A stretch of DNA of 64,000 bases, taken from the NCBI RefSeq assembly GCF_000027125.1, contig NC_017626.1. One strand, written 5' to 3'. The translations under genes were made by a program, and so were the position numbers. This stretch comes from Escherichia coli 042. Lineage in GTDB: Bacteria > Pseudomonadota > Gammaproteobacteria > Enterobacterales > Enterobacteriaceae. The notes beneath the pieces are model-generated. The model worked only from the letters and a program-made list of their open reading frames with translations. It had not been told where the DNA came from and did not search any database. Within the stretch, counting starts at the first letter, position 1; the number at the start of each line of letters is the position of its first letter. Of the stretch, positions 42,963 to 59,960 are shown in pieces.

Positions 42963-43983
42963 AAAAATTCACCCGCGCAGAGACCTGCTCCTTCGCTTTT
43001 TTCGCCAGACGACGCAGATCATCCCAGCGTTTACAGATGCCCAGGCCAGGATTCGCTTTCTGCCAGACCGTTTCATCAAACGGATCATCTCCCTCATCGA
43101 GCGTGTAAATGATCGCAAAGTAAGAGTCGTCTTTTACAGCGCCCTCCACGTCGCTGTTATAGCCTCGCAATACCTTGATGGCGTAATCACGCTGCTCGTA
43201 ACAAATCCCTTCCTTGTTAAAGCCAGCCGTGGTGATACCAAATAACAAGGACTGCAGACGGGCACCGGTTGCCGTTTCCAGAACGTCCCACACGTCGCGG
43301 GTTTTATGTGCATGCAGCTCATCAATAATGGCGCAGTGGATGTTCAGACCGTCCAGGTTGTTTGCATCCGAGGAAAGCGGTTCAAATTTTGATGCGCTCT
43401 GCTCCTGGTAAATCGCCAGCTTGTTGAAATCAAACAACCGCCCGAGTGTCGACCGGGCTTTTCTGACCATATTTTTGGCGTCTTCAAACACGATTCTGGC
43501 CTGGTCACGCGTGGTTGCGGCTGAATACACCTCAGCTCCGCCTTCACTATCTGCCCCCGTCATATACAGGCCGATACCCGATGACAGGGTTGATTTTGCG
43601 TTTTTACGGGCGACTTCGTTGTACGCCGTCCGGAACCGGCGCACCATCACCGGACGTCCGCTGCCATCGCTGCGCATGACAACTTCCCCGGTTTCTTCAT
43701 TGACCAGCGGAATGACAAAACCAAAAATATTAATGAGGATAAATACATGCCAGTCCATCAACTCAATGGGCTGGCCTGCCAGTGCCCCTTTTACATGAGG
43801 CACAAATTTGTAGAAATTCAGGATGTGCTGCGCACGGGGTTCACTGAAATAAATCCCCCGCTTTTCGCCGTACTTCAGATCATCAAGAAAACGCTGGCAG
43901 GCCAGGCGGACAAATTCGCCAGCAACAATTTCTCCTGCAACAACACGTTCGGCGTAGCGGATCCCGTCAGCCACTTTTGCCAT
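42956..43983 (-). pseudogene. terminase large subunit, N-terminal fragment (interrupted by satellite insertion)
   Basis: First 340-345 residues of the 807-aa ORF are TerL ATPase-domain sequence; the frame then runs through satellite DNA into the integrase. Confidence 0.8.
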
Positions 43984-44465
43984 CAGTCTCTCGCTTTTAA
44001 AAGCTCTGCCAGCGGATCAACATTATCCGGTCCGGCGGTATTTACTTTTGCCCGGCTTGCCGGTGACATACCAAATTCTGCAAGCATCGCCCGGATCCGC
44101 TTCCAGGCATCAGCCTTCATCGCAGCAGCCGGGTGTGCCTTGATCAGCACATCGCCATTCTGCGTTTTCGTGCGGTAGGTATAACCCTCAACATCGAGTA
44201 TTTCGCAGTGATGCCGGTATTCGGTGTAGGCTTCCACCAGTAACTCGAGCGCACGTGCATCGAGCTGAGAAATGATCCCTTCCGCATTCAGCTCTTCCGC
44301 CATTCGCCTGAACCAGTACTTCCCCTGAGCCCCTAAATGCTGCGGAATTTTAGGAAGACCTTTTTCATCCTTTTTAGCGGTTTTTTTGTGGTCTTTAACG
44401 GGGCGCTTTGAGGGGTTGCCTCGAATCAAATGCAGGCGTGGCGGGGTTTTCGGAGGTCCTGACAT
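43983..44465 (-). CDS. terminase small subunit, P27 family (prophage)
   Basis: 160-aa ORF overlapping terL start by 1 nt. Confidence 0.75.
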   Translation of the reverse strand: MSGPPKTPPRLHLIRGNPSKRPVKDHKKTAKKDEKGLPKIPQHLGAQGKYWFRRMAEELNAEGIISQLDARALELLVEAYTEYRHHCEILDVEGYTYRTKTQNGDVLIKAHPAAAMKADAWKRIRAMLAEFGMSPASRAKVNTAGPDNVDPLAELLKARD

Positions 44466-44613: not shown

Positions 44614-44964
44614 TCAATTGATGCGTTCGCGCGCTGTTTTTGCTTTATGACAGGGCCAGCACAGACTCTGCAGGTTACTGTCTGCATCTGTGCCACCATG
44701 AGCTTTCGGAATGATGTGGTCCACAGTTCTGGCTTCAACGGCTCTCCCATTGCGCAGGCAGTTCTGACACAGATGATTATCACGCTTCAGTATGCGCGCA
44801 CGTATGGCATCCCATTTCGAACCATAGCCACGCTGGTGGCGACTCAGTCCTCGTTGATGCTGTACCCATCCTTCGCCACGATGTTTATCGCAGTAACCAG
44901 AACTGTCTGTGGTTGTTCCTGCACATCCACGCTTACGGCAGGCACGTGGGATTAGTGATGGCAT
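44614..44964 (-). CDS. HNH endonuclease (packaging-associated, prophage)
   Basis: 116-aa ORF with Cys/His HNH motifs. Confidence 0.8.
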   Translation of the reverse strand: MPSLIPRACRKRGCAGTTTDSSGYCDKHRGEGWVQHQRGLSRHQRGYGSKWDAIRARILKRDNHLCQNCLRNGRAVEARTVDHIIPKAHGGTDADSNLQSLCWPCHKAKTARERIN

Positions 44965-46419: not shown

Positions 46420-46635
46420 TTACTCTCCCCGTGCCGCCTTACGACGGTCCTCTCTGATTTTGAAATACAGGTTAGTCAGATATGTCAGCAGCCCAAACAG
46501 CAGACTCCCCAGCACGCCTATTGCCGCCCACTGAGACGGGGAAACCCTGTCCAGCAACTGCAGGAACCAGTAGCCCGTTCCCACCGCTGACGTGGTGTAT
46601 GACACACCTGTTGTGATTTTTTCCATCTGGTCCAT
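46420..46635 (-). CDS. S: class II holin / pinholin (S21-like)
   Basis: Start set at [10 protein letters not shown]...; 71 aa; two TM segments and charged C-terminus ...[13 protein letters not shown]. Confidence 0.75.
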
Positions 46636-46942
46636 ACCCCGTCTCCCGTTATCCGGAAGCTGACAACAATAAAAAAGCCACCAGTTAACTACTGATGGCT
46701 CTGATAACTCATGCAAGCGTCTCAGACGATCCACTGACACTACCGGTGAGTTTAACGATACCTTCCATTTGACTGGCTCACTTTTTATGATGATGCCGGT
46801 GCATTTATCTCCAGCACCAGACTTTCTATCTCAACGCCATACGTTGCATTTTTGGTAATATCCGTCAGCGTCAGTGCATTTAGTCCCACTGCCAGACTGT
46901 CCTTTATGGCCTGGAATGCCGGGCCAGTACGATGACGTAGTA

Positions 46943-47131
46943 TCACTCCGGCTCAGTTGCACCACTGACCACCACATCACCTTCTGCTGCAATCGCCTGC
47001 ATCAGGGTATAAGGGGTTATGGCCACCGGACTACCAAACGGCTGCCAGCCCTCTTTCAGTTTATGTGTCAGCTTTTCCGCAAGATCTGACGGCGGCGCCG
47101 CCCTGACAACATCATAGTGTTTAAATGCCAT
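46943..47131 (-). CDS. hypothetical protein (DUF1737-like) upstream of lysis genes
   Basis: Small ORF at the conserved position upstream of S; assignment from memory. Confidence 0.4.
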   Translation of the reverse strand: MAFKHYDVVRAAPPSDLAEKLTHKLKEGWQPFGSPVAITPYTLMQAIAAEGDVVVSGATEPE

Positions 47132-47391
47132 GGTTCTTTCCACCATCTGAAAAATAACTCTTTAAAATACCTGACATGTAATACAGAAAAAACACAAAAC
47201 CATACCTTAAATAAAAACCTGATTATCAAGCAGATATGCATGGATAAACTACAAGACGAGATATAAACCACCCTGCATTTAAATAAACAATAAACAACAT
47301 CAGAAAAATAATTCTGCTCTATGGTTTACATTCAAAAATATCATTTATACTTTTCAGAACATCACCAGCAAGGCATAAACAAGGAAACTAA

Positions 47392-47727
47392 ATGAAGTGG
47401 ATTGTGATTGATACAGTTATCCAGCCATCATGCGGAATATCTTTTTCAGTCATATGGAGTAAAATAAAATTAATAATCTGGTATCAATCGGATGCTTTCT
47501 TACCTCCTGAAAGTATATTTACACTGACTCACACAGGCATCATGCTCAATAACAAAGTGCTACCTGTAACCATTTACAACGTAGTACCATTCAATAAAAC
47601 ATTCTGGAATTTAATCAAAAACAGCCAGGAATGCCCTACAAATACAGATAACGTATTGAATGAATGCTTTAATAACCGTTGCACTCTGCAAATATGTCCT
47701 TATGGACTAAAACAACAAAGTCCATAA
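47392..47727 (+). CDS. hypothetical AT-rich moron protein
   Basis: 111-aa ORF with AAGGA Shine-Dalgarno, opposite strand to the late operon, strongly AT-rich. Confidence 0.4.
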
Positions 47728-48174
47728 GGAGTTTACTCACATCTGACAAAATCAATATAAACAGCCCCTCCGGAGAGGGGCTGGAGAGTGGCGCTATGTG
47801 CCATTGCATGGTGCCGGGTGCCTCCCGGTGAATTCAGTACCAGCACCTGAATCCGCGATTATCCCATATACCTACTCGCTGATTGCCCCTCCGCACAGGG
47901 GGATTCACCATGCCAGTTTCTTTTAACAAACTCCCCGCAAACCAGACAACAGTCAACCGCCTGAATTGTGAAGTATTTAAAAATTTCTCCCGCTAACTGA
48001 TACCCGGCTAACAGTCTGGCGTTTTCTTTTTCAGCAACGGGAAAGCAACAACCACCACACCCGCCACCAGCACACCGTCAGCCAGCACTGACATTATCCG
48101 GCTGCTGCAATGCCATTCACAAAAACAGTAAGCAATCACTTTTTACCGTAACAGGTGATAATCCAGATATGTAT

Positions 48175-48528
48175 CTACCCCAGATGAGTAATCCGAAGTT
48201 CATCCATACCACAGGTCCTGGCTATTCTGTTGTACTCCTGAACAAGAGCAAATAATTCTGAATTAGCAACCATGAACTCATCGCTAACCCTTTGTATAGC
48301 ATCACTATTCAGAATAATAACGTCTCTTCCCGAAAGACGATCAGGAGTACAAAACAAAACTGTCAAACGGCTGAAGGCCTTTGCTCGTGCTGCATTGACT
48401 ATATCAATACGCTGCCTAAGGATGAAACACCCCGACGCCTCATCAATATTCACTCTACCCACACCATATGAATGATAAATATTTAATGCTGAAAAAACCA
48501 TTAGACCGTATAACAAACACTCAATCAA
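48175..48528 (-). CDS. hypothetical protein (possible gene remnant)
   Basis: 117-codon ORF with non-ATG (TTG) first codon; AT-rich; no family recognised. Confidence 0.3.
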   Translation of the reverse strand: MIECLLYGLMVFSALNIYHSYGVGRVNIDEASGCFILRQRIDIVNAARAKAFSRLTVLFCTPDRLSGRDVIILNSDAIQRVSDEFMVANSELFALVQEYNRIARTCGMDELRITHLG

Positions 48529-48636
48529 TACTTAACAGAACTTTTATTTTTGACAAACATATAATATTTTCAACAATATCCTGAGCCAGGTATATTTCAG
48601 TATAAGGCTCTGCCGGAAGGAATCTGGAAGAATGAA

Positions 48637-48713
48637 TATGGCGCGCTGTACTGGATTCGAACCAGTGACCGATTGCTTAGAAGGCAATTGCTCTGTCCGG
48701 CTGAGCTAACAAC
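48637..48713 (-). tRNA. tRNA-Arg (anticodon UCU)
   Basis: Manually folded cloverleaf: acceptor GCGTTGT/ACAGCGC, anticodon stem ATTGC/GCAAT, loop CTTCTAA, T-loop GGTTCGAATCC, encoded CCA. Confidence 0.8.
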
Positions 48714-48815
48714 GCTGAATACCGATAATGGACCGCCATCGGGGACCCGCCCCCGCACCAACAACCCTGTTATCGTGTCGTCTGCTCTTCCTGATAAGCT
48801 AATGGCGGTTTGTGA

Positions 48816-48891
48816 TGGTGGCCCTTGCTGGATTTGAACCAGCGACCTGGCGATTATGAGTCGCTCGCTCTCACCACTGAGCTAAAGGGCC
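48816..48891 (-). tRNA. tRNA with CAU anticodon (Ile2/Met type)
   Basis: Acceptor GGCCCTT/AAGGGCC, anticodon loop CTCATAA, T-loop GGTTCAAATCC, encoded CCA. Confidence 0.8.
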
Positions 48892-49034
48892 GGGAGCAGA
48901 ATAATAACGGTCCGTAATTAATTCCGCAATAAAAAACCCGCTCGGCGGCGGGTTGTAGAAACTCTTCTAACGTCAGGCATAAAAAGCCCATCGTTATGAC
49001 GAATTTACCACAGATTCCGGAAAAATCAACCTTG

Positions 49035-49856
49035 TTACCTAGTTACCTTTTTTAACTGCCGCTCAGCCCATGCTTCTTCAATATCAAACCGGGTCACCAG
49101 CGCATCATAGAATTTCTTAACTGTTTTTTCCCATGACGCGCGTGTTATCTGGTTTGTCACCTCGCATATAGCATTAAATACCTCCGTTGATGGTAGTCTT
49201 TCATAGCCACGACCACCACAACGCTGGCAGTCTCTGATAACAGGCATACCACGTTTTACCGACTCTTCACGGTGAATGGCGACACCACGCCCACGGCAAT
49301 CCTTACAGGCGGTGGAAACCTCACCCCTTCCGCCACACTCCGGACAGGCAACTTTTACCACCTCCCTGACTTTTTTCCATTCTTCCCAGTAAGACGGATA
49401 CACACCTTTCGTACACTTTGCCCATACCGGCGGCTTACCATCCGGATACTGGACCTTGTTTGTAAAAACTACGCTTTCAATAAATTTTTCCCCATAGCAA
49501 CAAGGGCACTGCTTTTTACTCGCTGCGCTGCGGGCATAATCCTCAAAAGCGTACGAAGCCATAATGCGCATCACTACCGGTTTTATTTCTGCCGGAAGTT
49601 TTCTCAACGCCGCCACACGATCGCACCGACTGAGTGCATAATCTGCCAGTAATTCTGTTGCCCGCGCCCTGTCATTCATACTGATGCCCATTTTCCCCAG
49701 GAACGCAGAAAAACCCATCTCAGCCCGATTCTGTGTCATGCCCTGCGCGGCCATCACATCAGTGATACTCAGCGCATCTTTTGACGTTGAGGCCGATGCA
49801 TCGGTCAGGCCAGGGGATTTTGGGGAGTAGTATTTCGGTAAATCTTCCAGTTTCAT
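49035..49856 (-). CDS. putative late-gene antiterminator (Q-like, zinc-finger rich)
   Basis: 273-aa ORF with four CxxC motifs, immediately upstream of the tRNAs and lysis genes. Confidence 0.5.
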   Translation of the reverse strand: MKLEDLPKYYSPKSPGLTDASASTSKDALSITDVMAAQGMTQNRAEMGFSAFLGKMGISMNDRARATELLADYALSRCDRVAALRKLPAEIKPVVMRIMASYAFEDYARSAASKKQCPCCYGEKFIESVVFTNKVQYPDGKPPVWAKCTKGVYPSYWEEWKKVREVVKVACPECGGRGEVSTACKDCRGRGVAIHREESVKRGMPVIRDCQRCGGRGYERLPSTEVFNAICEVTNQITRASWEKTVKKFYDALVTRFDIEEAWAERQLKKVTR

Positions 49857-51865: not shown

Positions 51866-52258
51866 CTACTGCCCTGTTTTAACGAAGTTTTTAAAGGAAA
51901 CAACTGCCTGATAGGGGTTTGGTTGACAGCCAAACATATTATCGCAAAAAGGCTTGATGAAAATTCTTGAGGATCCATCTTCATTTGGCATTTTACTCAC
52001 TTGATAAGCGAGGAATGGACTATTTGGAGAGGGATTATAAGTGGAAATTAGCGTGTCTGTCGCCGTTTGAATTTTCCATGAGGAATTATTAGCCAACCAG
52101 AATTGCGCTCGTTTCCAATAAAAGTCACATTGCTTTTCATCATTACATGTTAGTGGCTTCATTGCTTCTGCTTTCAACGCTGGATCGACCTTTGCTGCAC
52201 ACCCTCCCAACATTACTGTTGCAATCATTACACCTGCGACTAAAACAAGTTTCTTCAT
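51866..52258 (-). CDS. putative lipoprotein (moron)
   Basis: 130-aa ORF with signal peptide and lipobox LGGC; AT-rich. Confidence 0.6.
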   Translation of the reverse strand: MKKLVLVAGVMIATVMLGGCAAKVDPALKAEAMKPLTCNDEKQCDFYWKRAQFWLANNSSWKIQTATDTLISTYNPSPNSPFLAYQVSKMPNEDGSSRIFIKPFCDNMFGCQPNPYQAVVSFKNFVKTGQ

Positions 52259-52401: not shown

Positions 52402-52557
52402 TTACTCCTCAGGTTCGTAAGCTGTGAAGACAGCGACCTCCGTCTGGCCGGTTCGGATTCGTACCTCGCAGAGGTCTTTCCTCGTTACCAGTGCCGTCAC
52501 AATGACGGTTAAACAGATGACGATCAGGGCGATTAGCATCGCCTTTTGCTGCTTCAT
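52402..52557 (-). CDS. hok: Hok/Gef-family type I toxin
   Basis: 51-aa segment MKQQKAMLIALIVICLTVIVTALVTRKDLCEVRIRTGQTEVAVFTAYEPEE matches Hok-family toxins; the longer 70-aa ORF is the overlapping mok-like frame. Confidence 0.85.
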   Translation of the reverse strand: MKQQKAMLIALIVICLTVIVTALVTRKDLCEVRIRTGQTEVAVFTAYEPEE

Positions 52558-52848
52558 AGCCTGCTTCTCCTTGCCTTTCGGCGCGTAAGAGGCTAACCTA
52601 GATTTGCCGTTCATAGATTGAGCCTCAGATTAATGTTAAGCGTCTTGCAGGACGCGTAATGTTAACTGGGGCTTTTCTCTATCTGCCTTTTGGTGTTCAT
52701 GCCTGAGACAGATAGCCTCAAGCACCCGCTGCAATTCTACTTAACTCTCCTTTTCCCGCAAACCGTTTTTATCCCCAGCGGCAAATCGAATACACCACCA
52801 GCGCCACCGCCATCGCAATTCCTACCGTTGTTAATGCTTCAGGCCAGC

Positions 52849-59907: not shown

Positions 59908-59960
59908 TTTCTGGTGACGTTTGGCGGTATCAGTTTTACTCCGTGACTGCTCTGCCGCCC
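59908..59960 (+). ncRNA. dicF: DicF small regulatory RNA
   Basis: 53-nt sequence TTTCTGGTGACGTTTGGCGGTATCAGTTTTACTCCGTGACTGCTCTGCCGCCC followed by T-run terminator, upstream of dicB. Confidence 0.8.

Follow-up and report, generated by a model that had tools for sequence, protein, structure and literature searches.

The AT-rich locus that lies between the Q antiterminator and tRNA genes and the lysis genes of a lambdoid prophage carries, as judged from its sequence, the gene iraL, whose product belongs to the IraM/IraL/RssC family of anti-adaptors. It is very probable that this gene acts as a moron that blocks RssB and that it converges with three features of the prophage late leader, orf92, a DUF3927 ORF, and the sRNA gene STnc100. 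The prophage is contained in the window, by which we mean the whole 64-kb stretch of DNA that was analyzed. iraL is a characterized prophage-borne gene, and the locus is real cargo whose content was already known. The preliminary description of this DNA had assigned the cargo an unknown function, and this assignment falls because the 111-aa product has the same sequence as IraL, which has been characterized experimentally (PMC4045071).

Identity and boundaries of the iraL cassette

The iraL coding sequence (47392-47727, plus strand, ATG start) encodes an RssB anti-adaptor of 111 amino acids that is identical at 111 of 111 residues to IraL of CFT073 (WP_000871291.1), the product of the gene (c1429) that was named iraL by Hryckowian et al. 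(2014, mBio; PMC4045071) and that is annotated in CFT073 as "anti-adapter protein IraM." The same protein has 62% amino acid identity to K-12 IraM over 107 residues. The NCBIfam model for IraM (NF007393), whose cut-off is 121, scored it at 162 bits (E 4.7e-48, residues 1-110 of 111), and the sequence of the crystallized fragment IraM(1-78) (PDB 8twd) matched IraL residues 1-78 with an E value of 9e-32. The homology search that had been proposed for this ORF thus returns a known function, that of IraL/IraM. IraL is predicted to contain the N-terminal β-barrel domain (residues 1-78) with its clusters of RssB contacts. Fourteen residues of IraM have been listed as RssB contacts (PMC10844676), and IraL has the identical residue at 10 of these positions and a substitution at each of the other four (T13S, H63N, I64V, and L75I). 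The Cys-rich C terminus noted earlier is also present, as there are four Cys residues among the last 31 (C81, C92, C97, and C102), all of which are conserved in K-12 IraM. A Pfam scan of the 111-aa protein gave no match even at E≤10, Pfam being without an IraM model, and scans against NCBIfam and PHROG identified no family other than IraM.

In CFT073, deletion of iraL shortened the half-life of σS in log phase from ∼5 to ∼2.5 min, iraL under its native promoter increased σS in K-12, and an interaction between IraL and RssB was reported (PMC4045071). From this literature on an identical protein, the IraL encoded in the window is expected to bind RssB and to stabilize σS against ClpXP (PMC4045071). 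In the proposed mechanism, the adaptor RssB, once bound by IraL, would no longer hand σS (RpoS) to the ClpXP protease, and this sequestration of RssB would stabilize σS in log phase.

The gene lies in an AT-rich insert of ∼630 bp with ∼32% GC (47135-47762), which extends from the nanS-p start codon to the STnc100 terminator. The strong AT richness in the preliminary description is borne out by measurement: positions 47147-47727 have 32.2% GC versus a window mean of 49.1%, which is the lowest value of all 581-bp segments in the 64 kb, with 0 of ∼2,500 sliding segments being as low. A profile by codon position, which had been suggested as a check, gave an equally clear result, with ∼35% GC at all three positions of iraL (0.35, 0.35, and 0.34) versus 47-65% in the neighboring phage genes (for example, 0.53, 0.47, and 0.48 in Q). 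Second only to the iraL cassette in low GC content are segments of the window at ∼5000-6500, 27500, and 34000. Another AT-rich patch (38-41% GC) holds a 130-aa ORF whose product has a signal peptide of the lipoprotein type (…LGGC…) at 51866-52258 (minus strand), just upstream of the DUF968, RusA, and Q genes, and this ORF may be a second moron.

The ends of the insert were located by comparison with phage phi296, in which nanS-p, STnc100, and the tRNAs are present and iraL is absent. In the alignment, homology is lost a few bases past the nanS-p ATG (∼47134) and is regained at the hairpin (47763), so these break points set the limits of the iraL cassette at the start codon of nanS-p and at the terminator of STnc100. 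Based on these results, iraL is a horizontally acquired moron on the strand opposite the late operon, in agreement with the acquired cargo and the strand switch that had been proposed for this segment.

Megablast matches to the complete 1.5-kb locus, with 99.4-99.9% identity, were found in numerous E. coli chromosomes, that of CFT073 among them, and 862 of 5,426 complete E. coli genomes contain at least 80% of the locus. iraL-type sequences (≥90% nucleotide identity) occur in ∼1,440 of these 5,426 genomes, and an iraM-type sequence (60-80% identity) is the best match in ∼3,330. iraL is enriched in uropathogenic E. coli and Shigella.

Next to the cassette is a remnant of nanS-p, a sialate O-acetylesterase gene (46782-47146, minus strand), in which the DUF1737 N terminus is fused to the C-terminal end. 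The 67-aa DUF1737 ORF (46943-47146) aligns with positions 1-58 of the 634 positions of phrog_143, and a 53-aa ORF (46785-46946) aligns with positions 582-632. E2348/69 has the same iraL locus adjoining an intact esterase gene, and in a blastn comparison only the two ends of that gene were matched, ∼1.48 kb being missing in the window. An intact NanS-p (DUF1737 plus SASA, ∼620-635 aa, with the catalytic SASA domain) is therefore not encoded at this site. From these results, we conclude that the DUF1737 ORF and the 53-aa ORF correspond to opposite ends of one nanS-p gene that has lost its middle. The possibility had been raised that both ORFs of the locus itself were fragments of a decayed gene; neither is, and the decayed gene is the adjacent nanS-p.

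The late leader, orf92, and the DUF3927 ORF

The late genes of the prophage are on the minus strand, where the order is Q (49035-49856), a tRNA with a CAT anticodon (48816-48891), tRNA-Arg, the iraL/STnc100 locus, the DUF1737 ORF, the holin (ORF 46420-46740), a YdfR-like ORF, lysozyme, and Rz/Rz1. The CAT-anticodon tRNA, which is called Met by ARAGORN and Ile by PGAP in matching genomes, is probably a lysidine-modified, ileZ-like tRNA; such a tRNA is carried by Stx phages. The tRNA-Arg (TCT, 48639-48715, minus strand) was found both by ARAGORN and by the Rfam tRNA model. This gene order confirms that the locus lies in the stx slot, between Q and the tRNAs and the holin and lysis genes, as had been proposed, and the stx2B-STnc100 arrangement of other phages (PMC12370729) agrees with this placement. 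The locus is very likely an accessory-gene slot in the late leader of the lambdoid prophage, which extends from Q, pR', and the tRNAs to the lysis genes.

Directly past Q, the minus strand has a terminator (48935-48954), made up of a 7-bp stem and then TTTTATTG, whose position suggests the role of tR'. The segment from 48928 to 49034 (minus strand) is a short leader that runs from the Q stop codon to this strong terminator. In Stx phages, the pR'/tR' position is the site where the StxS sRNA is produced. The sole Rfam signal in this segment, a Trp_leader match to 48928-49034, reached 25 bits, below the threshold of 41, and was rejected as a leader-plus-terminator shape. Farther away, a sok antitoxin RNA (52552-52727, minus strand, 111 bits) implies a hok/sok module, and this RNA and the DicF sRNA (59909-59960, plus strand, 77 bits) mark the early region of the prophage as Qin/DLP12-like. 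An HNH endonuclease ORF (44614-44964, minus strand) lies immediately upstream of the small terminase subunit (43983-44465, minus strand), an arrangement typical of HNH-dependent cos packaging, so the packaging region is unlike the lambda-like one of L010, the closest iraL-locus genome.

A second ORF, at 48175-48528, had been listed as doubtful. This ORF exists, on the minus strand and with a TTG start (117 aa), and the doubt is probably unfounded, as its last 92 codons form a conserved core with a dN/dS of ∼0.27; the N-terminal 25 codons are not conserved. In two homologues with 59-63% amino acid identity, the reading frame is exactly 92 codons long and is closed by stops just upstream of the GTG-encoded "VNID(D/E)," so the conserved gene consists of the 92 codons at 48175-48453 (minus strand, GTG start). 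We refer to this conserved hypothetical phage gene as orf92. Its 92-codon core is open in three lineages that have 67-72% nucleotide identity, and pairwise Nei-Gojobori comparisons with two diverged homologues gave dN/dS values of 0.26-0.29. The differences are distributed over the three codon positions as ∼20/19/39, the third position having about twice as many as the first or second, and the two alternative frames contain 4-13 stops and have pN ∼ pS. These data demonstrate that orf92 is under purifying selection.

The ORF at 48175-48528 matched phrog_2873 with an E value of 4e-69, and orf92 homologues with 54-63% amino acid identity are present in other E. coli prophages, where they have Q or methyltransferase genes on one side and the holin or esterase on the other. 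Among 1.84 billion representative proteins, a profile search recovered only a small family of ∼90-106 aa, in which a distant relative has the neighborhood Q ... orf95 - TerB-like - DUF3927 - holin. A homologue located beside Mu-like baseplate genes is a weak match (E 3e-5), and a 696-aa match (P0034) was discarded as a repeat-protein artefact. AlphaFold2 modeled the orf92 product as a two-helix hairpin (pLDDT 89). No Pfam match was obtained for orf92, its best match among PDB sequences had an E value of 0.11, and a Foldseek search of the model against PDB and BFVD returned generic helical hairpins only, for example prefoldin, BAR, and EmrA, with E>0.1 in every case.

It is unlikely that the ORF at 48175-48528 is a chance reading frame in an AT-rich spacer, as might be supposed from the unconserved N-terminal 25 codons, from the absence of a Pfam family, and from the fact that PGAP annotates no gene here in CFT073, E2348/69, or the closest genome. 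Such a frame would not be expected to have a core that is open in three lineages, the above dN/dS values and codon-position bias, and other frames that are interrupted by stops; in addition, the diverged homologue WP_001017777.1 is annotated by PGAP, the neighborhood is kept in distant homologues, and the predicted fold has the high pLDDT given above. We consider that orf92 is probably a real gene that RefSeq annotation has missed in this lineage.

Upstream of STnc100 and on the same strand is an ORF for a small hydrophobic protein of 43 aa, DUF3927 or TciB-like (48008-48139, minus strand), which matched Pfam PF13064 over residues 2-43 (E 1.8e-27) and the TciB-like phrog_1470 (E 8e-13) and which is annotated as DUF3927 in CFT073. 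The interval between the two ORFs had been described as ∼450 bp of noncoding DNA, but it contains the STnc100 sRNA gene (47753-47942) and the DUF3927 ORF; when these are accounted for, only ∼125 of the 447 bp is left.

Predicted iraL expression and the STnc100 sRNA

A σ70 promoter has been placed upstream of the iraL start determined by 5'-RACE (PMC4045071). In the window, this promoter lies at 47325-47351 (plus strand), where the probable -35 (TTTACA, 47325-47330) and -10 (TATACT, 47346-47351) hexamers have bases identical to those of CFT073. The published 5'-RACE sequence, ACATCACCAGCAAGGCATAAACAAGGAAACCA (PMC4045071), positions the transcription start at 47359 and defines a 33-nt 5'UTR (47359-47391, plus strand). 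ACATCACCAGCAAGGCATAAACAAGGAAACCA is exact in CFT073 DNA and has one change in the window, at +31. From -100 to +33, the window and CFT073 are identical at 131 of 133 nt, the two changes being -1 G>A and +31 C>T, of which the latter is located past the Shine-Dalgarno sequence and before the ATG. No base is altered in the -35 hexamer, in the -10 hexamer, or in the Shine-Dalgarno sequence, and E2348/69 has the same two variants, -1 A and +31 T. Inspection by eye of the region upstream of iraL for a PhoP box revealed one half-site only (GGTTTA, 47323-47328).

As a self-contained moron with its own σ70 promoter and 33-nt leader, iraL would be transcribed against the late operon, and we infer that it is expressed in this strain, in the lysogen during ordinary growth. 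The opposite reading, that iraL is silent or nonfunctional here and is a relic without effect on σS, is very unlikely. It could appeal to the two SNPs near the start site, to the decay of the neighboring nanS-p, and to the very AT-rich DNA, which is typical of H-NS targets, and silencing of the promoter region by H-NS could occur in some backgrounds. However, the ORF is intact and its product is 100% identical to CFT073 IraL, the hexamers and the Shine-Dalgarno sequence are unaltered, both SNP variants are shared with E2348/69, and iraL-type sequences are kept in ∼1,440 of the 5,426 genomes.

The STnc100-family sRNA gene (Rfam RF02076) was identified by cmscan at 47753-47942 on the minus strand, with a score of 132.4 bits versus a gathering score of 47 and a match to model positions 1-206 of 206 that includes the conserved helices and the terminator. 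Both of the published STnc_100 qPCR primers (PMC12370729) were found in the window sequence. The strong GC hairpin that had been noticed near 47763-47780 is present at 47762-47783 as the intrinsic terminator of this gene on the minus strand, with a 9-bp stem containing 7 G-C pairs, a 4-nt loop, and then TTTATATTGA. This hairpin is the 3' terminal stem of the Rfam STnc100 model and has the features of a Rho-independent terminator. It lies 35 nt past the iraL stop codon and is the shared end point of the convergent iraL and STnc100 genes. Since no T-run is present after the hairpin except on the minus strand, it is late-strand transcription, not that of iraL, that is terminated, and the plus strand past the shared hairpin has no T-tract to end iraL transcripts. 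In the proposed layout, orf92, DUF3927, and STnc100 would be late-leader, late-strand genes that converge on iraL and end at this shared terminator.

The MFE z-score of this STnc100 copy is only -1.8, and a consensus promoter scan, which found 6 sites versus 5.8 expected from shuffles, gave no support for a promoter of STnc100 or of orf92. STnc100 may arise by processing from the 3' end of a longer transcript of the late strand, and its 5' end and any promoter of its own are putative. STnc100 has 11 copies in O157 EDL933; these are transcribed, Northern blotting has confirmed one of them, and members of the family have been detected as discrete RNAs that have little ribosome coverage (PMC5331693). 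Just past stx2B, STnc100 overlaps EcOnc27, an sRNA that is bound by Hfq (PMC12711010; PMC12370729), and in Stx2 phages STnc100 is 75 nt downstream of stx2B (PMC12370729). By analogy with these other O157 copies, for which a discrete, Hfq-associated RNA has been described (PMC5331693; PMC12711010, citing Tree 2014), the copy in the window may also produce such an RNA. STnc100 is structurally related to EPEC PasD (bioRxiv 10.64898/2026.05.13.724894). Identity with PasD was rejected, as its probe/seed CCTTGTGAGTTCTGGCTGCGCATG is absent from the entire window when up to 3 mismatches are allowed, and identity with PasA was rejected on the same grounds, its probe being likewise absent. The EPEC RIL-seq candidate 'E2348C_2757.EST5UTR' (prophage PP10) is not the iraL leader, as it lies elsewhere, beside portal and terminase genes.

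Annotators have placed CDSs in this interval, so the segment 47750-48140 might be read as protein-coding rather than as an sRNA gene, either through a plus-strand 42-aa ORF (47798-47926) or through a longer TciB as in phage JLK-2012. This reading is scarcely credible in view of the full-length covariance match of 132 bits, with conserved helices and terminator, and of the family members that are discrete RNAs with low ribosome coverage (PMC5331693), and neither PHROG nor NCBIfam has a match for the plus-strand ORF, which PGAP flags as an incomplete, partial pseudogene. The 42-aa ORF lies wholly antisense within the STnc100 gene and appears as a partial 'hypothetical protein' in several genomes. 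Several CDSs that have been annotated across 47798-47926 probably reflect miscalling of an sRNA gene.

Comparison with other loci and implications

The iraL locus of CFT073 resembles that of the window, as it has the DUF1737 remnant, the DUF3927 ORF, and tRNA-Arg as flanks and is 99.3% identical over 2.3 kb. It differs in having three tRNAs and an IS200 upstream, compared with two tRNAs in the window, and the rest of the prophage is mosaic. In the CFT073 work, the site is called the 'potB genomic island,' and the late-operon context and the adjacent sRNA are not described (PMC4045071). K-12 IraM (YcgW) resembles IraL in most of its RssB-contact residues and in the four C-terminal Cys residues, and iraM also adjoins prophage DNA (e14). 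In contrast, the DNA that flanks iraM, including its promoter, is unrelated to that of iraL, and there is no STnc100 beside iraM; common ancestry of the iraL and iraM flanks was rejected, as the alignments are noise. The unrelated promoters agree with the different regulation of the two genes, IraM being induced by PhoP and stress (Mg2+ starvation) and IraL acting in unstressed log phase, with different RssB contacts reported (PMC4045071).

The STnc100/EcOnc27 of O157 Stx2 phages lies, as in the window, downstream of Q, the tRNAs, and cargo and upstream of nanS-p and the holin (PMC12370729; PMC12711010), but it follows stx2B, whereas the STnc100 in the window follows the DUF3927 ORF. The stx operon occupies the same slot, from Q, pR', and the tRNAs to nanS-p and the lysis genes, and the occupant is accessory cargo in both cases, with no sequence relationship between the two. 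The stx genes are on the late strand and depend largely on Q-antiterminated transcription from pR'. iraL, unlike stx, is on the opposite strand, has its own promoter, and would be expressed in the uninduced lysogen. No toxin homology (stx or other) was detected in the slot, as NCBIfam and PHROG scans of its six ORFs identified IraM, DUF3927/TciB-like, and unknown-function families. The view that the stx slot here holds an uncharacterized, possibly toxin-like cargo gene, which was correct about the slot and its anomalous composition and could point to the missing Pfam model, is practically untenable for a protein that is identical to a characterized IraL, passes the NCBIfam IraM cut-off, matches the IraM structure, and falls in no other NCBIfam or PHROG family.

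What is new is limited to the 92-aa gene, which had escaped annotation, and to the arrangement in which iraL and STnc100 converge, and current understanding is unchanged. The analysis makes modest additions, namely the exact site of the cassette in a lambdoid late leader, the 92-aa gene, and the probable miscalls over 47798-47926. It is unlikely, when taken as a whole, that the convergent layout is functional, with an antisense switch of iraL by Q-modified RNA polymerase and iraL RNA antisense to STnc100, and that the probable gene orf92 also encodes a late-leader protein that belongs, with DUF3927/TerB-like genes, to a conserved module of the stx slot. If this were true, at induction the Q-modified RNA polymerase would pass the hairpin and transcribe antisense over iraL, which would turn off σS stabilization as lysis begins, and in the lysogen, iraL transcripts that escape termination would run antisense to STnc100. 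The cargo of this prophage can now be labeled, which removes a false lead to an unknown gene in the toxin slot, and iraL is an example of a prophage moron that can rewire a core regulator of its host, the level of RpoS.
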